This document shows, in pieces, positions 3 through 23,100 of a DNA stretch of 35,728 nucleotides (position 1 is its first letter; each line of letters begins with the position of its first letter). Made by a program: the position numbers and the translations under genes. The DNA is from a virus (lineage: Duplodnaviria > Caudoviricetes): positions 1-35,728 of the IMG/VR virus record IMGVR_UViG_3300031452_000061; one strand, written 5' to 3'. A model generated the notes under the pieces. The model was not told the origin of the DNA and searched no databases. It saw only the letters and a list, made by a program, of their open reading frames with translations.

Positions 3-377
3 GAAGACGCGGCGTGGGTGAGTAGCCGGCTCGGGACGGCCACGGTGATCGGCAAGAGCGCCAACGCGGGGCGACAGCGCGGCCAGGTGCTCGTCGGTCA
101 GGGCGGCTACGGCAAGGGCGAGATCGGGCGGCCGCTGCTGACGCCCGAGGAGATCCAGCAACTGCCCGAGGGCTGGATGATCCTCAACGGCCTGCACGCG
201 CGGCCCGCCCTGGTGCGCGCGCTCCCGTGGTACAAGCAGCGCGCCTTGCGGCGTCTGGTCGGACGCGCGCAGAGGCGGCAAACCGTGGCCGTGGCTACCG
301 TGGCTACCGCTGCCACGCCGATCTCTATTGACACGCCCCCCGCTGGCGAGCACGTCACCGTCGGCGAATCGGCGTAA
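3..377 (+). CDS. C-terminal part of a VirD4/TraG-like type IV coupling protein (5' truncated by the window)
   Basis: The frame is open from the window edge: EDAAWVSSRLGTATV...GRPLLTPEEIQQLP...PWY. This matches the typical TraG/VirD4 C-terminal pattern (xxxxSxxLGxxT ... RxLLTPxEIxxLP). Confidence 0.7.
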   Translation, partial: EDAAWVSSRLGTATVIGKSANAGRQRGQVLVGQGGYGKGEIGRPLLTPEEIQQLPEGWMILNGLHARPALVRALPWYKQRALRRLVGRAQRRQTVAVATVATAATPISIDTPPAGEHVTVGESA

Positions 378-660: not shown

Positions 661-688
661 CGCGCGCCCGCGCCCACGGGGAGTCGCC
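661..688 (+). repeat. Outlying degenerate copy of the array repeat
   Basis: CGCGCGCCCGCGCCCACGGGGAGTCGCC matches CTCGCGCCCGCACGCGCGGGGAGCCGCC at 23/28 positions. It is followed by a spacer-like stretch with an imperfect palindrome ATTGGTTAC-ATC-GTTACCAAT (697-717). Confidence 0.6.
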
Positions 689-775
689 GTTACCCTATTG
701 GTTACATCGTTACCAATCCTCGACCAGAAAGCCCACGGTTTTAGCCGTGGGATGAATGGGCGTCCATAGAGCGCG

Positions 776-1171
776 TCAGCGCGTCCGTTGCTCCGCGATG
801 TACCGCTTGATCGTGTCATTCGACACATCGCCGGCCGTCCCGCAATAGTAGCTCCTTGTCCAGAAGCTTGGGAGCCTGAGCAGGTGCGGAAACTCCTGGC
901 GTAGGACGCGCGATGATTGCCCCTTGATGCGGTACATTAGTTGATCCGGCGCGATATTCGGCGGGGCGTTCAGAAAAAGGTGGACATGATCGGGCATCAC
1001 TTCCAGCGCCAGCAGGTGGCACCCTAACGCCTCGACCTGTGCGTCAATCAGCGCCCGCGCACGTTCCCCCACCGCGCCAACAAGGAGCGCTTTGCGGCGC
1101 ACGGGTATCCACACGAAGTGATAGTTGATGAGCGTGACCGATGTCCGCTCCCGTCGATAGCTTGTATCCAT
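776..1171 (-). CDS. tnpA: IS200/IS605 Y1 (HUH) transposase
   Basis: YHFVWIP..RK N-terminal motif, HUH motif MPDHVHL, KG.SSR, FWTRSYY, and the catalytic Tyr in KRYIAEQ. Confidence 0.95.
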   Translation of the reverse strand: MDTSYRRERTSVTLINYHFVWIPVRRKALLVGAVGERARALIDAQVEALGCHLLALEVMPDHVHLFLNAPPNIAPDQLMYRIKGQSSRVLRQEFPHLLRLPSFWTRSYYCGTAGDVSNDTIKRYIAEQRTR

Positions 1172-1299
1172 CAACGACAGTATAGTATACTTAGGAGGAT
1201 AGCGCCGGATGTTCCGGGTCGCTGTTCCCCCGGATGTTCCGGGCTTCCCTAGCGTGGATAGCGGTATGAGGTGATCCGCTATCTGGAGACCGGCAACGG

Positions 1300-1498
1300 T
1301 CCTTCCCCGTCGTGCTTCAGAGGGGCATCGTTGTAATGGCGATGTTCGTTCGATGGGGAGCGGTGCATGGCACTCCGCTTGTCCTGGTCAAAAGGACAAC
1401 TGACACGCTCGAAAGGGCGGGCCAGCAGCTCCATGAATACCCACATCAGGTGGGGGCTACATGCGAGAATCCCACTCCTTTAGGGGTGGGAGTGTCAA
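1300..1498 (+). ncRNA. Probable remnant of the tnpB 3' end / omega (re)RNA scaffold
   Basis: Occupies the position between the divergent tnpA promoter region and the right-end hairpin, where TnpB reRNA scaffolds are encoded. No RuvC or Zn-finger TnpB coding sequence remains. The 5' boundary is a guess. Confidence 0.4.
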
Positions 1499-1515
1499 CA
1501 ATAGACCTCGTAGAC

Positions 1516-1916
1516 CTCGCGCCCGCACGCGCGGGGAGCCGCCGAGCAGGAGGAAAAAAAAGGTGTGAGTCACACCCTCGCGCCCGCACGCGCGGGGAGC
1601 CGCCCAAAACGGTTCTTGTTACGAACCGTTTTAAGGCCTCGCGCCCGCACGCGCGGGGAGCCACTCTCAAAAACAGCGGTTACATTGTCACTACTGTTCT
1701 CGCGCCCGCACGCGCGGGGAGCCGCCCCGTGAAACAACATGTTATTAATATTAATAATCCTCGCGCCCGCACGCGCGGGAAGCCGCCGTTGCCAGATAGT
1801 GAATTAATTCACTATCTGGCACTCGCGCCCGCACGCGCGGGGAGCCACTGTTGCCAGGTGATGAATTAATTCATCACCTGGCCTCGCGCCCGCACGCGCG
1901 GGTGCGGGGAGCCGCC
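1516..1916 (+). CRISPR. Orphan CRISPR-like array with type I-E geometry: 7 repeats and 6 palindromic spacers
   Basis: Repeat CTCGCGCCCGCACGCGCGGGGAGCC(GCC/ACT) starts at 1516, 1577, 1638, 1699, 1760, 1822 and 1883 (period 61, once 62). Spacers are 33-34 nt. Internal stem CCCGC-ACGC-GCGGG. The last repeat has a 6-nt insertion. No cas genes in the window. Orientation is inferred from the I-E-like stem plus 3' handle. Confidence 0.85.
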
Positions 1917-2056
1917 ACTAGCGATGCATGCCCCCGATAAACGGTCTACCCGCACGTCCCATGTGGCATGCTAAAGGTGCGGGCGGTCTGCGGTGTGTTT
2001 TGGAGCTACTCACCGTGGGCCGCTCGCCCTACGTGGCCCCGCGCGGAGCCGGCCGC

Positions 2057-2257
2057 TTAGGGTGTGCTGTCTCGGTGTTCGGCCTGCTGCCAACGGTCAC
2101 ACCGCTCACGCCAGGTCGCCTCGTGAGTGTTTGCGATGAACTTAGCCATGGGGGCGTTGTTACCCTCACTGACAACGTAGCCGCGTAAGTCATCATACAC
2201 AGCCCACTTTTGCGAGAAACGATGAGGGCGCGCGACAAAGCGTAGGCGAGGCGTCAT
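2057..2257 (-). CDS. Small hypothetical protein
   Basis: 66-aa ORF whose start overlaps the stop of the upstream HTH gene (ATGA coupling at 2254-2257). Confidence 0.5.
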   Translation of the reverse strand: MTPRLRFVARPHRFSQKWAVYDDLRGYVVSEGNNAPMAKFIANTHEATWRERCDRWQQAEHRDSTP

Positions 2258-2808
2258 AGTCCTCTAAACAACCTGAGCCACCACGGCACCTGTCGCCTGG
2301 CCCGGCGCAGTTCCGCCGCCTCCTGCTCGGCGACCTCGGCACGGTGGCGCTCACGGCCTAGCTCTTCGCGCACTGCGCCTAACTCACGCTGTGTCCGGTC
2401 GAGGTGGTCGACCAACGGGGCGACAAGCTGCTCCACGATGGTCTGCACGGCGGCAGACTGGACGCTCGTGTCTGCCAGGCTTGCCAGGCTTGCCCCGCGT
2501 ACTAGGCGTGCCTGGCTGTCTAGCGTGCTTGGCTGTCCAGTGTTGGCGGTGTCACTGTCGAGGGCATCACGCCGGCCCATCCACTCATCGAGCGTGGCCA
2601 AGCTGATGCGGTACTCGGAGCCACGCGGACCTTTGACGCGCCAGGATGGCAAATGACCGGGATGACCGCCACGCGCTTTCAAGGCACGCCTGATCGTGCG
2701 ATCGGACACGCCGGCGTGCGCCGCGGCCTCATCGACGGCCAGGCCGGCGTCGTTAGACACACCAGCGCCGGCGTGTCCAGTGTCTAGGTTGTCTAGGTTG
2801 TCCATCAT
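2254..2808 (-). CDS. HTH (excisionase/MerR-like) plus coiled-coil protein, possible single-protein partition factor
   Basis: LAVDEAAAHAGVSDRTIRRALK HTH, then GSEYRI, a C-terminal coiled coil (RELGAVREELGRERHRAEVAEQEAAELRR) and a PWWLRLF tail. Start moved to the MMDN ATG at 2808. Confidence 0.7.
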   Translation of the reverse strand: MMDNLDNLDTGHAGAGVSNDAGLAVDEAAAHAGVSDRTIRRALKARGGHPGHLPSWRVKGPRGSEYRISLATLDEWMGRRDALDSDTANTGQPSTLDSQARLVRGASLASLADTSVQSAAVQTIVEQLVAPLVDHLDRTQRELGAVREELGRERHRAEVAEQEAAELRRARRQVPWWLRLFRGL

Positions 2809-2872
2809 CGCCGCTAGTGTACCACGCCCTAACATCACGAGGGACGCGCATGGTAGCTGGAGCCTTAACCGG

Positions 2873-3136
2873 CTACAGACCCGCGTCAATACCCTCCAGG
2901 CGAAGCGGGCGGCAGGTGACACAGATGGGCTCGGTCGTCATCGCACCCGTCGTCTGTATGGATGCGTGCAAGGGTGTGCGGCGGGTCCGGCGTGAGAAGA
3001 GCATGCCGGGCGCGATAGGTCGGCCGCACACGCTGCACGCAAGCTCCGCGACGGCGCGGTAGGCGGTCGTGACGACGCCGGTATCCAGTGTCGCGCGCCC
3101 GACCTGATGACTCTTCACAGGGACCCTCACCATCAC
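2873..3136 (-). CDS. Small Zn-finger-like hypothetical protein
   Basis: CSVC...CVTC pairs; SD-like GGAGGGG upstream on the minus strand. Confidence 0.5.
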   Translation of the reverse strand: MMVRVPVKSHQVGRATLDTGVVTTAYRAVAELACSVCGRPIAPGMLFSRRTRRTPLHASIQTTGAMTTEPICVTCRPLRLEGIDAGL

Positions 3137-4079: not shown

Positions 4080-5084
4080 TCACGCATGCCCCACCTCTCC
4101 CACGCGCCCTATGCTCTCGTGCCCGCCCTCGGCCAGGACGCCCATCAGGTGCTGCGTCGCGCGCATCCACGCGCCCTCGTCCCCCGCGCCGATCTGTTGC
4201 CAGCGCGTGGCCCCTAACGCGTCGTGGCCGTCCTCACGCTCGATCACGTAGGGGCGCGTCCCTCTACCGTCCTCATCATCATCGTTAGAGGAGGTTGGGG
4301 CGCTCTCGCGTAACTGGACGATGCGGTAGCGCGCGTCCTGCCAGGCGAGGCGAGGCAGTGAGGGGTGTAGGGCTAGCGGTTCGGGCGCCGCTGCGGGTGT
4401 GGTGATGGTGGCCGTTGCCGGCGTGATCCGGTTGGGCACGGTCCGCACACCCTTCCTGGTCGCTGTTGTCCGTGGCGACGCGGCCTTGCCCCTCGTCTTA
4501 CCCGTAGCCTTACGCGTGGAGGTCGCCGCGCGGCGTGTGCCCTTGCGTGACGTGGCGCGCGGGCGCTCCTGCGCCTCGACGAGCGCACGCAGGAGGTCTG
4601 GGTCAACGGTCAGGGCCTCAGCTAGGCGCGGCGCCATAAAAGGCGACGGGCGACGCGCGTCCTCCTCATACGCTTTGACGACGCCAGACTGGATACCGAG
4701 CGCGTTCCCCAGTTGCGTGCGGGTTAAGCCTTTCTCCTCACGCGCCGCCACAAGGTATGCACCGAGCGTCGTGACGGTAGGGTCTGGGTCGTCAGATACA
4801 ACGGCGGGGCCTGAGTCATCAAGTACGTCGGACAGGCGACGCGACACCGGCCTGGTCGCTCGCGGTCGCCGCTCCACCTTGGGAGAGAGATCGGGAGCGG
4901 TGGCGTCCCATGACGCGCCTCTCTCTTCGTCGGGGGCAACGAGACGCGCCGCCGCGGCGGGGTCTGCGCGGTACAAGTCGATGGTCGCGTCCCGCGCGGC
5001 GGTGGGGGTGAGCTCGCCGGCCACCATGCGCCGGTTGACTTCGGCGCGTGACATCGGCGGCACGGTCGGCGTGCTGGTGTTCAT
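4080..5084 (-). CDS. XRE-family HTH protein with a basic, histone-like low-complexity segment
   Basis: LGAYLVAAREEKGLTRTQLGNALGIQSGVVKAYEEDARRPS...LAEALTV is an HTH_3 pattern, followed by an R/K/A/T-rich tract. Confidence 0.75.
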   Translation of the reverse strand: MNTSTPTVPPMSRAEVNRRMVAGELTPTAARDATIDLYRADPAAAARLVAPDEERGASWDATAPDLSPKVERRPRATRPVSRRLSDVLDDSGPAVVSDDPDPTVTTLGAYLVAAREEKGLTRTQLGNALGIQSGVVKAYEEDARRPSPFMAPRLAEALTVDPDLLRALVEAQERPRATSRKGTRRAATSTRKATGKTRGKAASPRTTATRKGVRTVPNRITPATATITTPAAAPEPLALHPSLPRLAWQDARYRIVQLRESAPTSSNDDDEDGRGTRPYVIEREDGHDALGATRWQQIGAGDEGAWMRATQHLMGVLAEGGHESIGRVGEVGHA

Positions 5085-11087: not shown

Positions 11088-11324
11088 TTGCCCTTCGGCA
11101 CGCCTTTTGTGAGGAGTCCCCATGGATACCGACATTGTTCAACAGTTGATTGACCTGACTGACGGTAGCTATTACGTTCCCGACGATGCCCTCTCGCCTC
11201 TTGCACGAGAGATTCTGCGCGAATTCGTCACCCCCATTGTCGGCCATTATGGTCGTGTGGTGTGGCCCATTGGAGACCTCACAACCGACCTGTAACGACG
11301 ATGCGAGGGCAGAGCACTTCCCCA

Positions 11325-11372
11325 GACGCACTAAGGGCCTGTGGCTGCTTACAGGCCCTTAGTGCGTCTTTT
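11325..11372 (+). terminator. Long hairpin / terminator upstream of the replicase operon promoter
   Basis: AGACGCACTAAGGGCCTGT-GGCTGCTT-ACAGGCCCTTAGTGCGTCT, a 19-bp perfect stem followed by T residues. Confidence 0.65.
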
Positions 11373-11778: not shown

Positions 11779-14700
11779 ATGGTAGCGCAGACACTCTCTG
11801 CCCTTGAAGTAGCGCGCGCCACCAAGACCCGCGGCTACCCCCCATTGCCCGTCGCTTTTAAAGGTAAAAATCCATTGCCCACGGGGTGGCCAACGCTTGT
11901 CCTCGACGACGATGACCTACCCGCGCACTTCCCCGAAAATGAACGACCGCTCAATGTTGGCGGATTGCTGGGTGAGTTAGCGGGCGGCCGCGTCGATGTA
12001 GACATCGACGCACGCGAAGCGTGGAGCATCGCCGCCCAGTTTCTCCCCCCGACGGAGGCCGTATTTGGACGGCGCAGCTGCCCACGGTCACATTACGAAT
12101 TTGTCGTCACCAGCGGGCCGATCCCGCGTATTGTAGAGTACCTGGACCCCCTGCTTGAAAAGGGAGATGCGCGCGTCAAGTTAGTCGAGATTCGTGGCAC
12201 CGCACACCACACCGTCATGCCCGGATCGATCCATAGTTCGGGCGAAGAAGTCTGTTGGAACCAGGACGGAGAACCAGGCGCGGTCGATGCCCCGGATCTT
12301 GAACAACGCGCGGCCACGCTCGCCTCTGCCACACTGTTAGCACGCTACTGGCCAACGGGTGCGCGGCATGATACGGCTTTGGCGTTGGCTGGGGCGCTCC
12401 TGCGCAACGGCTGGACTCCTGAGCGGGCCGAACAATTCATCGTCGCCGTCGCCTCGGCCGCTGGCGACACCGATGAGCGCGACCGGCGCACGGCCGTGCA
12501 AACCACCGCCACGAGGCTCACAGCCGGTGAGACCGTGTTCGGTATCCCGCGTCTTAAAGAGTTGCTCGATGCACGGGTGGTTGATCGCGTCGTCGCGTGG
12601 TTACACCTTGTTGAGGTGGCCAAACCACGCACCGCGACCCCAGGCGCGGTGCGACCGCCGACGAGGGCGGATGCCCCAGGGGCTGTACCGGAGGTTGGAC
12701 GATTCCACCTCACAGACCTCGGCAATTCAGAGCGCCTGGTAGCGCAACACGGGGAACGCCTGCGTTATTGCTACGCGTGGAATAAATGGCTGGTTTATGA
12801 CGAAGGCTACTGGCGCGCTGATCGTCCCGGCTTGGTCGTCGCGTTGGCCAAAGAAACCGTCCGCTCAATCTACAAAGAGGCGGCCGACGAGCCCGATGAC
12901 AAGGTGCGTGCCGCTATAGCCTCCTGGGCTAAGGCGTCTGAATCACATAGCCGTATTGGCGCCATGGTCGCGCTGAGTCAGTCCGCGCTTCCCATCGACC
13001 ACACCGAGTTCGACCGCGACCCCTGGCTACTCAATTGCCGCAACGGGACGCTCGATCTCAATCGCGGCATCTTGCGACCGCATGACCCCGCGGACTGGCT
13101 GACTAAGCAGGTGCCGCTGGCGTACGACCCTGACGCCCAGGCTCCCATGTGGCGCGCGTTCCTGCATTCCATCATGGGCGAGGACGACGACCTCGTCGCC
13201 TTCCTGAAACGTGCGGCGGGGTATTGCCTCTCGGGCAGCACGCGCGAACAGTGCCTATTCTTTATGCACGGCAGCGGCAGCAACGGCAAGAGCACATTCC
13301 TCCTGACGCTGCAATCCGTATTAGGCCCGTACGCCATGCAAGCCAAAAGTGATCTGCTCATGGCCAAGGCCCACCAGGACCACCCGACCGAGGTCGCGGA
13401 CCTGTTCGGCGCGCGCCTGGTCGTCTCTATTGAGGTGGAAGACGGGAAACGCTTTTCTGAGTCGATGCTCAAGCAGCTGACCGGCGGTGATAAGATACGC
13501 GCCCGCCGTATGCGCGAGGACCACTGGGAGTTCGACCCGACCCACAAGATTATGCTCGCAGCCAACCATCGCCCCGCTGTACGCGGGACCGATCACGCCG
13601 TGTGGCGCCGCATCCATCTCATCCCGTTTACGACGACGATCCCGGAGGAACAGAAGGATGTGAACCTGCCCGAGAAGTTGAGGGCCGAGGCGCAGGGCAT
13701 CTTGACATGGATGGTCGAGGGGGGTGCCGAGTACATGCGCGCCGGCCTGCGCGTTCCGGGGGCAGTGCGGGCGGCGACCGCGGGCTATCGCGAGCAGATG
13801 GACCTCATCGGCCAGTTTCTGAACGATCGTTGCGACGTCGGCCCCACCCTCAAGGACACGACCGCCAACCTGTACCGCGCATATTGCGCCTACTGCGAGG
13901 ATAACGGCGAGAAAAGCGTGTTAAGCAACCGGCGGTATAGCGATGCGCTGACCGAGCGGGGTTTCGCGTTAGTGCGCGGCACGGGCGGGGTGCACCTGCG
14001 GAAAGGGCTGCGATTACGCCCCGACGTGCCACCGGACGATGGGTGGTTTGACGATGGGGCAGCTGGGTTTACCCCCTCACCACCCTCCGCCCCACCCTTT
14101 AGTGACGTAAGTGACGTGAGTGACGTTAAATCTACTATAAACGGGGATTTAATTTCTCACGAGGGTGTTATACCGAAAATAACGTCACTCACGTCACTTA
14201 CGTCACTATCAGCCAAGGAGTGGGTCCACGATACCGAAAACCATCCTAACGATGAAGGGGGCGCTGTTAACCTCGTTAACCTCGTTAACCTCGTTAACCT
14301 TTCCGTACCCAACCCACGCGGGCGCGCAGGTGCACACACACACGCACGCACACAAGATGAGTGTGAAAAGGTTAAGGAGGTTAAGGAGGTTAATCCAGAA
14401 GAGGTCGTGGGCGGGGCTGGCAAGGAGTCGTTACGTCCGTGCCCCGGCTGCGGGACACCAACCCTTCACGGCTGGACGTGTCGGGGGTGTCGCCTCGGGC
14501 AGCCGCCCGCGACGGCGGTTGTAGAGTCGGCAGACCGGCCGGTGGAGCCGTCAGACGCGCCTAGCGCCATCCCCGCCGCCGTGGTGCGCGACGAGGGGCC
14601 AGCGGCGCCCTACACGATGCTGACGACGGCCCGCGACGTTGAGGACATGCTGACGAGCGTGCGCGCCGCGCCAATCGTCGGCCTGGACACGGAAACGACG

Positions 14701-16341
14701 GGACTTGACGCGCTGACCGACCGCCTGCGCTTGATCCAGATTGCGACGCCGGGTGCGGTGTACATGCTCGATGCGTTCGCGCTCGACCCGCGGCTGATTG
14801 CGCCGCTCCTACAGGGAGACGGGCCGCTAGTGGTCGGGCACAACCTCAAGTTTGATGTGAGGTTCTTAGAAAGCGCCGGCATTCCGCTACCAGCGGGACA
14901 GCGCCTGTTCGATACGATGCTCGGCGCACAACTTCTGGGCGCGGGCGCGGGGCCGTCGGTTAGGTATGGTCTGAAGGACGTCGCCGAGCGTGCGTTGGGC
15001 CTCACAATAAGCAAGGATGAGCAGAAATCGGATTGGTCGGGTCCACTGCGCCCAGAGCAACTGAGCTACGCGGCGAAGGACGCCGCTATCCTGCCCGCGT
15101 TGGCGGAGCGCTTACGCGGCGACATTGACAGCGCCGGCCTCCAACGCGTGTGCGATATAGAGATGCGCGCGCTCCCGGCCATCGCGTGGGTCGAGCAGAC
15201 GGGCGTGCCGTTCGACGCGACCGCCTGGACACGGCTGGCCGGCGCGGCGTCGGCCGAACTGGTCGAGGTAGAACGTGAACTGACGGCGGTCACAGGCACG
15301 GGCGGATTGTTCGAGGGGAGCAGTACCGTCAACTGGGGGAGCGCGCCGCAGGTGGCCGCTCTGTTGCGTGCGCGGGGGCATACGGTCACATCGACCGATG
15401 AGGCGGCGCTGCTAGAACTCGCGGAGGCCGGTGAACCCCTCGCCGCGCTGCTGCTGCGCCATCGTGACGCGGCGAAGCGGGCGAGCACCTATGGCGCTGA
15501 CTATCTCAAGTGGGTGAATCCGCGCACGGGTCGCATCCACCCGCATTTCGGCCAACTCGGTTCCGACGCCGGGCGCATGACTTGTTCGTCGCCTAATCTT
15601 CAGCAGGTGCCACGCGACAAGCGGTATCGGGCGTGCATCCGACCGAAGGAGGGGCGTGTTCTGGTCAAATGCGATTATGCCCAAATCGAGCTCCGCCTGG
15701 CTGCCGAGATCGCTGGCGACAAGAGCCTCATTGAGGCGTTCCAGCGCGGGGACGACTTGCACGCGGTGACGGCGCGTACGGTACTCGGCAAGACGGACGT
15801 GACCAAGGATGACCGCCAGGCGGCCAAGGCCGTGAACTTCGGCCTGCTCTACGGCATGGGCGCGGAGGGGTTACGCGTCTACGCGAAAAACGAGTATGGG
15901 GTCCAATGGTCCTCAGAAAAGGCGGCGGCTGTGCGCGCCAAGTTCTTCGACACGTACCGGGGCCTGAAAGCGTGGCATCGCAGCCAGCCGGACGGCGCGC
16001 TCGACACCTCTACGGTGGCGGGTCGCCGCCGAAGCGGTATCACGGGTTTTACTCAGAAGCTCAATAGCCCGGTACAGGGCTCAGGCGCTGATGGTCTCAA
16101 GGCCGCGCTGGGACTGTTAGGGGAGACACGGGGGCGTGTCTCGTCTGCGGCGCCCGTTAACGTGGTTCACGACGAGATAGTGGTCGAGTGCGACCGTGAC
16201 CAGGCCGAAGAGGCGCGGGCCTGGGTCATGGACGCGATGCGGAGCGGTATGGAAACCGTCTTACATCGCGTGCCGGCCGAGGTCGAGGCGACTATTTGTA
16301 GCGATTGGTCGGGAACGGCGCTCAACGGAGGTGCGCCGTAA
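11779..16341 (+). CDS. Multidomain replicase: AEP Prim-Pol + PriCT + D5/P4-type SF3 helicase + 3'-5' exonuclease + family A DNA polymerase
   Basis: Prim-Pol: LNVGGLLG, VDVDID, SH, VMPGSIH. PriCT: RHDTALALAG. D5_N: TDLGNSERL, LLNCRNGTLDL. Walker A: GSGSNGKST; KQLTGGD. Exonuclease: LDTETTG, HNLKFD, YAAKDA. PolA: PNLQQVP, DYAQIELR, KAVNFGLLYG, VHDEI. Confidence 0.95.
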   Translation: MVAQTLSALEVARATKTRGYPPLPVAFKGKNPLPTGWPTLVLDDDDLPAHFPENERPLNVGGLLGELAGGRVDVDIDAREAWSIAAQFLPPTEAVFGRRSCPRSHYEFVVTSGPIPRIVEYLDPLLEKGDARVKLVEIRGTAHHTVMPGSIHSSGEEVCWNQDGEPGAVDAPDLEQRAATLASATLLARYWPTGARHDTALALAGALLRNGWTPERAEQFIVAVASAAGDTDERDRRTAVQTTATRLTAGETVFGIPRLKELLDARVVDRVVAWLHLVEVAKPRTATPGAVRPPTRADAPGAVPEVGRFHLTDLGNSERLVAQHGERLRYCYAWNKWLVYDEGYWRADRPGLVVALAKETVRSIYKEAADEPDDKVRAAIASWAKASESHSRIGAMVALSQSALPIDHTEFDRDPWLLNCRNGTLDLNRGILRPHDPADWLTKQVPLAYDPDAQAPMWRAFLHSIMGEDDDLVAFLKRAAGYCLSGSTREQCLFFMHGSGSNGKSTFLLTLQSVLGPYAMQAKSDLLMAKAHQDHPTEVADLFGARLVVSIEVEDGKRFSESMLKQLTGGDKIRARRMREDHWEFDPTHKIMLAANHRPAVRGTDHAVWRRIHLIPFTTTIPEEQKDVNLPEKLRAEAQGILTWMVEGGAEYMRAGLRVPGAVRAATAGYREQMDLIGQFLNDRCDVGPTLKDTTANLYRAYCAYCEDNGEKSVLSNRRYSDALTERGFALVRGTGGVHLRKGLRLRPDVPPDDGWFDDGAAGFTPSPPSAPPFSDVSDVSDVKSTINGDLISHEGVIPKITSLTSLTSLSAKEWVHDTENHPNDEGGAVNLVNLVNLVNLSVPNPRGRAGAHTHARTQDECEKVKEVKEVNPEEVVGGAGKESLRPCPGCGTPTLHGWTCRGCRLGQPPATAVVESADRPVEPSDAPSAIPAAVVRDEGPAAPYTMLTTARDVEDMLTSVRAAPIVGLDTETTGLDALTDRLRLIQIATPGAVYMLDAFALDPRLIAPLLQGDGPLVVGHNLKFDVRFLESAGIPLPAGQRLFDTMLGAQLLGAGAGPSVRYGLKDVAERALGLTISKDEQKSDWSGPLRPEQLSYAAKDAAILPALAERLRGDIDSAGLQRVCDIEMRALPAIAWVEQTGVPFDATAWTRLAGAASAELVEVERELTAVTGTGGLFEGSSTVNWGSAPQVAALLRARGHTVTSTDEAALLELAEAGEPLAALLLRHRDAAKRASTYGADYLKWVNPRTGRIHPHFGQLGSDAGRMTCSSPNLQQVPRDKRYRACIRPKEGRVLVKCDYAQIELRLAAEIAGDKSLIEAFQRGDDLHAVTARTVLGKTDVTKDDRQAAKAVNFGLLYGMGAEGLRVYAKNEYGVQWSSEKAAAVRAKFFDTYRGLKAWHRSQPDGALDTSTVAGRRRSGITGFTQKLNSPVQGSGADGLKAALGLLGETRGRVSSAAPVNVVHDEIVVECDRDQAEEARAWVMDAMRSGMETVLHRVPAEVEATICSDWSGTALNGGAP
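14100..14208. repeat. Iteron set 1: inverted arrays of 9-mers (putative replication origin)
   Basis: AGTGACGTN x3 (14101-14127) and its inverse x3 (14181-14207) form a perfect 29-bp inverted repeat around a 51-bp AT-rich core. Confidence 0.85.
14266..14393. repeat. Iteron set 2: inverted arrays of 9-mers (second putative origin)
   Basis: GTTAACCTC x4 (14266-14301, last copy ends in T) faces AAAGGTTAA-GGAGGTTAA-GGAGGTTAA (14367-14393) around a CGCG/CACA-rich core. Confidence 0.8.
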
Positions 16342-21718: not shown

Positions 21719-22474
21719 ATGACCGTCACGATGGCGTCCGATCTGGCCGTCGCCTTCGATCCCGTGCTCTTCGCACGTAGCGCCGGCATCGAGCCGGACC
21801 CCTGGCAAGCGCAAGTGCTGCGCAGCGCGTCCGATCGCTTGTTGCTCAATTGCTCGCGGCAGTCTGGGAAGAGCTTTATCACGTCGATTCTGGCGTTGCA
21901 CGGCGCGCTGTACACACCCGACAGCCTCATCCTGATGCTCAGTCCGAGCTTGCGGCAGTCGGGCGAATTATTCCGTAAGGCGCTCGCGCTCTACCGTGGC
22001 CTGGGCCGTCCGGTGCCGCCTGAATCGGAAACGGCCCTGACGCTGACGCTCACTAACGGGTCGCGTATCGTCAGCTTGCCTGGCACCAAAGACGGCACGG
22101 TGCGCGGTTTCTCCGGCGTGAACCTCATCGTCATCGACGAAGCCGCCTGGGTCCAGGACTCCCTGTACCTGTCCGTGCGCCCCATGCTGGCCGTGAGTGG
22201 TGGGCGCCTGGTGGCCCTCTCGACGCCGTACGGCACGCGTGGGTGGTTCTTCAATGCGTGGCGGGGCAGCGAACCATGGGAGCGCTACGAAGTGCCGGCG
22301 ACCTTATGCCCGCGCATCGCGTCCGCGTTCCTTGAGGAAGAGAAACGGAACATGGGCGAGTGGTGGTTCGCGCAGGAATACCTCAATCAGTTCCTGGAAT
22401 CCGAAGCGCAGCCGTTCGCCCGTGAGGACGTCGAGCGCGCCTTCGACGCCGACACGGAGGCATGGGACCTATGA
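21719..22474 (+). CDS. Terminase large subunit, stand-alone ATPase domain
   Basis: PDPWQ (Q motif), SRQSGKS (Walker A), IVIDEAA (Walker B), LSTPYG (coupling motif), FAQEY. Confidence 0.9.
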   Translation: MTVTMASDLAVAFDPVLFARSAGIEPDPWQAQVLRSASDRLLLNCSRQSGKSFITSILALHGALYTPDSLILMLSPSLRQSGELFRKALALYRGLGRPVPPESETALTLTLTNGSRIVSLPGTKDGTVRGFSGVNLIVIDEAAWVQDSLYLSVRPMLAVSGGRLVALSTPYGTRGWFFNAWRGSEPWERYEVPATLCPRIASAFLEEEKRNMGEWWFAQEYLNQFLESEAQPFAREDVERAFDADTEAWDL

Positions 22475-23100
22475 GCGCACTCACCGTGGGCGTCGATGTT
22501 GGACAAGTCCACGACCCGACTGCAATCGCTGTGGCTGAGGCCACCCCGTCCGTCCACGCCGGGCGTGGTGAAGACCGCTATATCGTGCGCCATCTCGAAC
22601 GATTGCCGCTTGGCACGCCCTATCCACAGGTCGGGGAGCGGCTCGCCGCCATCGTCGCGGGAGCCCGTCGGCGAAACCCCGGCGTCACGCTCTACATGGA
22701 CGCAACAGGGGTTGGTCGTCCCGTCGTCGATCTACTCACCCAGGCCGGCATGAGACCACACGCGGTCTATTTCGTGGCTGGTGACGACCTAGTGGTGCGC
22801 CCCGACGGCAGCATCGCGCTTGGCAAGGGGTGGCTCGTCTCCCGGCTCCAGGCGCTGCTGCATGCGGGGCGGTTATCGTTGCCGCACACGCCCGAGGCGC
22901 GAGCGTTAGCCAGTGAACTTTTGACCTACGAAATCAGGGTGCGGCCAAACGGGGGGACGTCGTTCGGGGCATTCCGCGCCGGCACGCACGACGACCTCGT
23001 GACCGCGGTGGGCCTGGCTGTCGTCGATGCCAGGTCACGCCCCGTTCAGCAGCGACGGGAAGGACGGATGACGGCATGGGACCAATCACGATCGGCCTGA
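22471..23100 (+). CDS. Terminase RNase H-like nuclease domain, copy 1 (catalytic residues intact)
   Basis: VGVDVGQVHDPTA, MDATGVG, HDDLVTAVGLA; ATGA overlap with the ATPase gene. Confidence 0.85.
   Translation: MSALTVGVDVGQVHDPTAIAVAEATPSVHAGRGEDRYIVRHLERLPLGTPYPQVGERLAAIVAGARRRNPGVTLYMDATGVGRPVVDLLTQAGMRPHAVYFVAGDDLVVRPDGSIALGKGWLVSRLQALLHAGRLSLPHTPEARALASELLTYEIRVRPNGGTSFGAFRAGTHDDLVTAVGLAVVDARSRPVQQRREGRMTAWDQSRSA

Follow-up and report, generated by a model that had tools for sequence, protein, structure and literature searches.

CRISPR spacers are understood as templates for guide RNAs; if some of them acted as DNA sites, adaptation would gain a second output, a memory of cis-elements. 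This question is raised by a repeat array carried on a single 35.7-kb record of a conjugative element, the whole of which is called here the window. An earlier note, made from the letters alone, had described it as a Cas-less, type I-E-like array with a palindrome in every spacer. From where were these palindromes taken, and do they serve as guides, as protein-binding sites or as neither?

The array and its conjugative carrier

The CRISPR-type array of the window consists of 8 repeats and 7 spacers (661-1916), and its features are collected in Table 1. The 28-nt repeat and its period of about 61 nt, both pointed out in the earlier note, were confirmed: seven repeats start at 1516, 1577, 1638, 1699, 1760, 1822 and 1883, at a period of 61-62 nt, the last one carrying a 6-nt insertion, and 0/100 shuffles of the sequence yielded repeat matches. 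The extent then given is right for these seven repeats, and missed the decayed repeat 0 with its neighbouring spacer S0. This 33-nt spacer is interrupted by an IS200-type element, and its dyad has 9 pairs, a number reached in 0/200 shuffles. The ends of the element were set by eye, from what we take to be IS200/605 end motifs; a joint from 716 to 1511 (side of 29 nt, weak) is found in 3/4 Logan runs.

Table 1. Features of the array and of its immediate surroundings in the window
Feature	Position	Strand	Remarks
virD4-like coupling-protein gene, 3' end	3..377	+	Pfam TraG-D_C, weak
Decayed trailer-end repeat (repeat 0)	661..688	-	
Spacer S0, left part	689..713	-	
IS200/IS605-type element within S0	714..1498	-	tnpA at 776-1174; Pfam Y1_Tnp E 1.8e-35
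S0 right part (1499-1506) and 9-nt duplication	1499..1515	-	sequence
Seven 28-nt repeats with spacers S1-S6	1516..1916	-	leader sense = minus strand
S1 dyad	spacer 1544..1576, dyad 1562-1576	-	7/7 pairs, shuffle p 0.003
S2 dyad	spacer 1605..1637, dyad 1606-1632	-	10/10 pairs, 7-nt centre, shuffle p 0.0005
S3 imperfect dyad	spacer 1666..1698	-	10/13 pairs
S4 dyad	spacer 1727..1759, dyad 1742-1757	-	8/8 pairs, shuffle p 0.018
S5 perfect 32-bp dyad	spacer 1788..1821, dyad 1790-1821	-	16/16, 0/2000 shuffles
S6 perfect 30-bp dyad	spacer 1850..1882, dyad 1853-1882	-	15/15, 0/2000 shuffles
Conserved leader-side flank	1917..2030	-	-10-like hexamer 1968-1973, minus strand
HTH_17 and coiled-coil backbone gene	2254..2922	-	oriented toward the array; also in array-less siblings

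Within the window all spacers are palindromic (7/7), S3 marginally so (shuffle p 0.10, or 0.02 in the corrected register). The dyads of S1, S2, S4, S5 and S6 lie where they had been placed before, and the pairing reported for S3 was found again; S5 is an allele of the same dyad class as S6. Folded as RNA, only S2 (-13.9), S5 (-21.6) and S6 (-18.9 kcal/mol) are strong, whereas S1, S3 and S4 fold no better than shuffles (p 0.09, 0.30 and 0.84), which indicates DNA dyads and not strong hairpins. The spacers S1-S6 are covered in letter-perfect pieces by Logan contigs of four rock-metagenome runs, one of which may be the source sample. The palindromes are therefore not assembly fold-backs, an artefact that the earlier note had envisaged. 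The remaining palindromes of the window (n=30) are nearly all GC-rich stem-loops, a type scarce among spacers, and an Rfam search gave no match. In the leader-side flank, A2 and T6 of the -10-like hexamer are invariant in an alignment of 11 flanks; a promoter scan does not flag this hexamer, which is also present in the array-less sibling L063.

By Pfam, the window encodes VirB4, VirB6, the end of VirD4, a tyrosine recombinase and an NlpC/P60 protein, and no capsid gene was seen. A search among plasmids gave no match for VirB4, 27% for VirD4, and about 50% for the recombinase, to cyanobacterial and Chloroflexota plasmids. ParA and ParB had no match in the window. The description as cas-less stands: cas families were found neither in 50 ORFs of the window, nor in 103 ORFs of siblings, nor among 81 ORFs compared with PADLOC, in a search whose scope is bounded by a window contig that may lack a few kb ahead of virD4. 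The same searches did not find csf1-5 or dinG, of type IV-A, beside the array.

Other features of the element were seen in passing. The gene at 11779-16341 encodes a 1520-residue protein in which a primase-polymerase, a D5-type helicase, a 3'-5' exonuclease and a family A polymerase are fused, and a 46-bp inverted repeat with 19-bp perfect arms (11324-11369) lies upstream of this replication gene. The terminase large subunit (21719-23100) is split into two ORFs, ATPase and nuclease; it is likewise split in L052, and undivided in L050.

A family of arrays enriched in dyads

In a scan of metagenomes, the repeat was found at 31 loci, spread over 28 contigs, the window's own included, with virD4 in 24/31; the gene end at 3..377 clusters with the full VirD4 genes of these loci. 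The arrays mostly adjoin virD4 on its downstream side and hold 1 to 7 spacers in the relatives, 7 in the window; the slot is free of any array in L048 and L063, two siblings that share the backbone. On sibling contigs, the DNA within 6 kb of the repeats was examined. VirB4 homologues are 87-93% identical (one at 46%), so that the 28 contigs represent one narrow lineage and are not independent cases. In the genome scan, 12/13 loci were single chance matches and 1/13 was a small array. On viral contigs, the exact repeat was found 0 times, a degenerate repeat at 1 locus and a generic I-E-like pattern 0 times. The earlier note had proposed searching for homologous arrays and for a cognate I-E cas locus: the former exist, on 28 contigs, but no cas-linked array with this repeat was found in the genome scan (13 loci) or the metagenome scan. 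Two more small arrays, apparently cas-less, were seen besides (Gammaproteobacteria genome G004, L035:10001-10200 and L049:4800-5150); their 28-nt repeats are related, some of their spacers are palindromes, and one of them adjoins a satellite-like element with terminase-small and capsid-like ORFs.

We then asked how general the palindromes are in this family. Briefly, unique spacers of 28-40 nt were retained from 92 repeat-to-repeat intervals, one 24-nt and one 55-nt spacer were dropped, S0 was added and near-identical spacers were merged, resulting in 59 spacers in 50 clusters. Shuffles were beaten at p 0.05 by 27/50, and the dyad score was at least 7 in 26/50 and at least 8 in 22/50. Among tiles of plasmid DNA (n=1448), the respective values were 3.6% and 1.3% (5.2% of 97 AT-rich tiles), and ordinary type I-E spacers, from two Streptomyces plasmid loci (L065, L066), reached 7 in 6/97 cases and 8 in 0/97. 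As had been proposed, the array is thus not an ordinary spacer set. That every spacer is palindromic holds for the window but not for the family, in which 24/50 spacers score below 7: dyads make up 8/9 spacers in L026 and 5/5 in L004, 1/6 in L001, and none in L024 (0/5) and L015 (0/3). Homologous arrays with ordinary spacers, which the earlier note had named as evidence against its reading, therefore do exist in part.

The dyad centre falls at spacer positions 13-19 in 18/26 dyad spacers. Spacer S3 is common to L004, L019 and L026. In loci without a ParAB match 38/57 spacers are dyads, versus 4/12 in loci with one, a comparison drawn with duplicates dropped, from loci too incomplete and non-independent to support a link between the lack of ParAB and dyad-rich arrays. 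Two spacers have an unusual structure: in L018 (6025-6089) the dyad is lengthened to about 58 bp into the adjacent repeat, as template switching would give, and in L021 (5916-5999) a 55-nt spacer repeats an 11-nt unit about 4 times, like an iteron-type direct repeat.

Spacers taken from palindromes within genes

Spacers S2 and S4 match sibling DNA outside arrays at 33/33 positions, the former in the dyad of a family-R gene fragment (L026:8455; family described below), the latter in the in-gene dyad of a 173-aa HTH gene (L021:5291). A spacer of L003 matches L057 at 32/33, and a non-dyad spacer of L015 matches L050 at 29/33. Read on the minus strand, the PAM is AAG in 3/4 of these close targets, that of S4 included, and TCG for the S2 target; AAG and ATG are reported for E. 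coli I-E adaptation, in the accessible part of the source (PMC4027179). The first base at the leader end is G in 36/50 spacers, and this G is PAM-derived. No spacer matches the window itself with fewer than 12 mismatches. By eye, the left ends of the arrays are decayed and shared and the right ends variable; this polarity, together with the side of the PAM, places the leader from 1917 onward. The idea that dyads are kept since they survive a flip of the spacer was rejected: on the plus strand, S2, S4 and the L003 spacer have no PAM on their known targets.

A 28-nt hairpin repeat, 32-33-nt spacers and a 61-nt period fit the geometry of type I-E arrays such as L065 and L066, which have the same 28+33 period and GC hairpin core; on the plus strand, 22/28 letters are those of the L065 repeat. 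No linked cas operon was found in the ORFs searched, and, unlike in these arrays, the hairpin is shifted by 2 nt in the leader/PAM sense (7 before, 5 after), a mirror-image register. The register in that sense is 7+16+5, whereas the canonical I-E register of 5+16+7, with its 8-nt handle, fits the opposite strand only. This geometry permits a 6-nt 5' handle, the value known from type IV-A3, whose arrays, as far as the accessible text of that study goes, are filled in trans by I-E Cas1/2 (10.1101/2023.06.23.546257). By analogy, spacer insertion is most likely the work of an I-E-type Cas1-Cas2 provided in trans.

The dyads matched by spacers sit within coding sequence, and not between genes as the earlier note had expected. 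Of the spacers that match 10.1 kb of source genes with at most 9 mismatches, all extend over the centre of the dyad (13/13, and 0 elsewhere in the genes), a count that is partly circular as the source genes were picked for resembling spacers; chance coverage would be about 6% by an arithmetic estimate, and shuffled spacers never fell below 10 mismatches to the same genes. The genes behind the 13 matches are ParB-like, HTH or members of an unnamed family, and their palindrome is hypervariable.

This unnamed family, R, comprises 157 homologues of about 200-230 residues (for instance L054:9629-10267, proteins P0001-P0120). The proteins are all-helical, with a hypervariable segment followed by a conserved helix pair, and variation affects the dyad but not the flanking helices. 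Most of the ten family-R loci fetched with their DNA hold a different palindrome at the hypervariable site. When spacers were compared as peptides with 115 family-R proteins, the 7 best matches all lay in the variable segment (null 14%). In the window, the peptide reading of S0 matches this segment (score 46 to P0070, null maximum 39), the best match of S3 is a family-R dyad in L053, with 7 mismatches, and S1 resembles the segment by eye, the peptide test being not significant (p 0.5). In full-length family-R genes (L054, L059, L060), the dyad occurs once in flanks of up to 10 kb. For the structural model of family R (pLDDT 84), Foldseek gave nothing at E 0.001 (best VIA Z 5.0), neither a PDB match nor a consistent Pfam one was obtained, and Atlas matches were below 0.9. 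A ParB-type domain was considered for family R and not borne out, profile comparisons to ParB giving probabilities below 3%, although an absent match is compatible with such a fold.

The gene matched by S4 belongs to a small HTH family (L021, L005 and L019, with L025 at 34%). Its three alleles are about 80% identical overall and differ mainly in the HTH and in the dyad next to it. At least six spacers derive from the dyad of one and the same HTH family, in differing registers and on both strands, and L021 and L019 each own one HTH allele together with a spacer for another. As for S6, its 10-residue reading is found letter for letter in the linker of a ParB-like protein, P0271 (PHROG 4715, E 6e-8), whose C-terminal domain is shared with a sibling ParB (41% over 114 aa). 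A scan of 39 ParB-like homologues showed DNA-methylase fusions in 13, a weak ParB HTH match in 4 and a match to the ParB N-terminus in 3. In their C-terminal linker, plasmid parB genes (L033:12645, L020:4638, L001:6588 and L001:6658) were also seen to have an AT-centred palindrome of their own, 16-20 bp long, which is a candidate parS. These alleles of L033, L020 and L001 were not matched by any spacer.

The same dyad classes occur outside repeats. Scraps of family-R genes, cut back to the surroundings of their dyads, are stacked at one locus (L062:5678-5782, L055:9972-10231, L053:9815-10356). They lie downstream of a hairpin that resembles a terminator and are free of any CRISPR repeat; in L062, three dyads lie inside 105 bp. 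Homologues of the XRE-HTH gene of the window (4080-5084) carry an in-frame insert, about 46 residues long and seen in five alleles, that combines a dyad with an HTH; the window gene does not have it, and a viral scan found no match for this dyad-plus-HTH fragment. In L025, about 550 bp of an HTH gene lie between two repeats, and in L005 and L008 gene sequence continues from the repeat.

Sites, guides or by-products of capture

It is likely, judging from the sequences compared here, that the spacer palindromes are docking sites of the source proteins themselves, which would serve the carrier as decoys or as guides against rivals. Going further, we tentatively favour a reading that falls a little short of being probable: this cas-less array, with its spacers from in-gene palindromes of related mobile elements, would be a collection of docking sites acting as DNA. 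The 33-nt pieces of other elements that lie between the repeats, with a PAM-derived G at their leader end, would have been put there by a type I-E-like Cas1-Cas2 acting in trans. Those that can be assigned cover the hypervariable dyad of ParB-like, HTH or family-R genes, and this dyad would be the binding site of the protein that its gene encodes, parS-like in the ParB-like cases. Carrying the site of a rival would then draw off or borrow the rival's protein, the outcome being partition interference, hitchhiking or escape, and pieces with an intact dyad would be kept. Lying between repeats, with no PAM, such a site would also be safe from the guides of siblings. Two options of the earlier note, decoy sites and guides aimed at dyad cis-sites, thus survive, with their targets now identified as in-gene dyads and with binding that is putative.

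Operators of the ParB-parS, SopB-sopC and KorB systems are AT-centred dyads, and an extra centromere can destabilise a resident plasmid. The dyads described here are similarly AT-centred and adjoin coding sequence of ParB-type HTH domains. Unlike in parS or sopC arrays, which repeat one site on a replicon that also encodes the cognate ParB, all sites are different, of foreign alleles, in single copy and set between CRISPR repeats. Function at the DNA level is favoured by the repeat-free dyad collections, by the lack of spacers in conserved parts of the source genes, and by the L018 dyad grown into its repeat, which would be harmful to a guide though not to a DNA site. The enrichment in dyads, the coverage of in-gene dyads and the ParB-like nature of P0271, in face of a window that has no ParA or ParB match, suggest the same, as does the scarcity of GC-rich stem-loops among spacers. 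Against it, one copy per site is a weak sponge, 24/50 spacers are not dyads, and PAMs, a conserved leader-side flank and absent self-matches are the traits of a working guide array. Moreover, in family R, which has no detected DNA-binding fold, the dyad varies and the helices do not, the dyad of the full-length genes is found once within their flanks, and the repeat-free scraps could be recombination scars.

A conflict between siblings guided by RNA is quite conceivable, if on balance doubtful. Transcripts starting at the leader would be processed and taken up by a borrowed type I-E or type IV-A-like effector, and dyads would be kept either because the allele-specific part of swapped modules can be targeted with no hit on self, or because blocking the site is effective. 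The perfect or near-perfect sibling targets, the AAG PAM (3/4), the first base G (36/50), the flank, the window's lack of self-match and the L021 and L019 elements, with one HTH allele and a spacer for another, all speak for this. Precedents exist in the virus mini-arrays of SPV1/SPV2, which, in the accessible parts of the reports, have a leader but no cas, and spacers against related, co-occurring elements and not against the carrier (PMC6858448; PMC11656645). The window array resembles them in lying on a mobile element with no cas, a leader-side flank and related, non-self targets; in contrast to their one or two spacers, it has up to 7, sits on a conjugative element with I-E-type geometry, has in-gene dyads for half of the family's spacers, and its identical host repeat was not found in our scans. 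Another precedent is type IV-A3 (10.1101/2023.06.23.546257): as far as the accessible text goes, the two have in common a conjugative array, an AAG motif whose G enters the array, a short 3' side of the repeat, which the 6-nt handle of IV-A3 would fit, and plasmid-versus-plasmid targets, but csf and dinG were not found here and no dyad bias is seen in what is available on IV-A3. Guides account less well for other observations. The window, which has none of the source genes, could target their conserved parts, and no spacer does; the PAM of S2 is TCG; in five predicted repeat-spacer-repeat folds, all of dyad spacers, pairing between repeats replaces the single-repeat hairpin; the repeat-free dyad stacks are left unexplained; and no cognate cas locus was found in the genome and metagenome scans. 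DNA-level function and RNA-guided conflict can both hold.

Passive build-up with little function, in which protein-covered or cruciform dyads are hot spots for Cas1-Cas2 and for illegitimate recombination, appears unlikely. It would agree with the centring of 18/26 dyads, which looks like a footprint, but long dyads fit only centrally, so that this centring is partly geometric. Type III-A adaptation does prefer hairpin-forming DNA and takes spacers from inverted repeats; in the accessible part of that report the preference concerns type III-A of the host studied and not its type II-A system, and the spacers come from sso, oriT, attenuators and tRNA/rRNA genes, unlike the PAM-flanked in-gene dyads found here (PMC8860593). 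Ordinary I-E arrays show no such bias, and terminator-type hairpins are scarce among spacers. Still less credible is an array of RNA anti-CRISPRs, as proposed in the earlier note, whose hairpin units would occupy host Cas6 or Cascade with non-productive RNA. The array is indeed cas-less and immediately follows an HTH gene that is read on the same strand, its repeat register is non-canonical in the leader sense, and S2, S5 and S6 fold strongly. This proposal is nevertheless weakened by the perfect, PAM-flanked sibling targets and by the weak folding of 3/6 RNAs (S1, S3, S4); any hairpin would do, yet one class of in-gene dyads dominates; and in contrast to the solitary-repeat RNA anti-CRISPRs (Racr) there are 8 repeats and two spacers with 33/33 targets. 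Finally, a role of the perfect dyads in telomere resolution, or as recombinase sites, in these replicons is highly improbable. Many dyads have 6- or 7-bp centres, and a 26,008-bp record of a viral collection (L032/G001) mirrors itself around a repeat-flanked S5/S6-class spacer that lies at the midpoint, just after parB, the 6,030 bp compared being a perfect palindrome. This mirror may be a hairpin end or an assembler fold-back, a check of L032 across four runs having found no strand-change joint and no read-through. However, the S5/S6 class sits internally, between repeats, in the window and in six other arrays, unlike protelomerase hairpin telomeres at replicon ends, and it reads as the linker peptide of a ParB-like protein.

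Orphan arrays on mobile elements are already known. In a search of largely open-access literature, no description of an array family aimed at in-gene dyads was found. To return to docking sites acting as DNA, it is imaginable, though rather uncertain, that spacer capture has been repurposed as a whole: a borrowed Cas1-Cas2 would store an updatable library of rivals' centromere- or operator-like sites with no guide RNA, and the sources would be widespread, undescribed genes for self-addressed DNA-binding proteins, each with its own hypervariable palindrome in the gene. If the spacers act as guides, plasmid-versus-plasmid targeting can converge on one 20-35 bp site per gene. In either case, they point to hypervariable palindromes in ParB-like, methylase-fused and unnamed genes of mobile elements, and they provide matched candidate pairs of protein and site, P0271 with S6 and the L021 HTH protein with S4.
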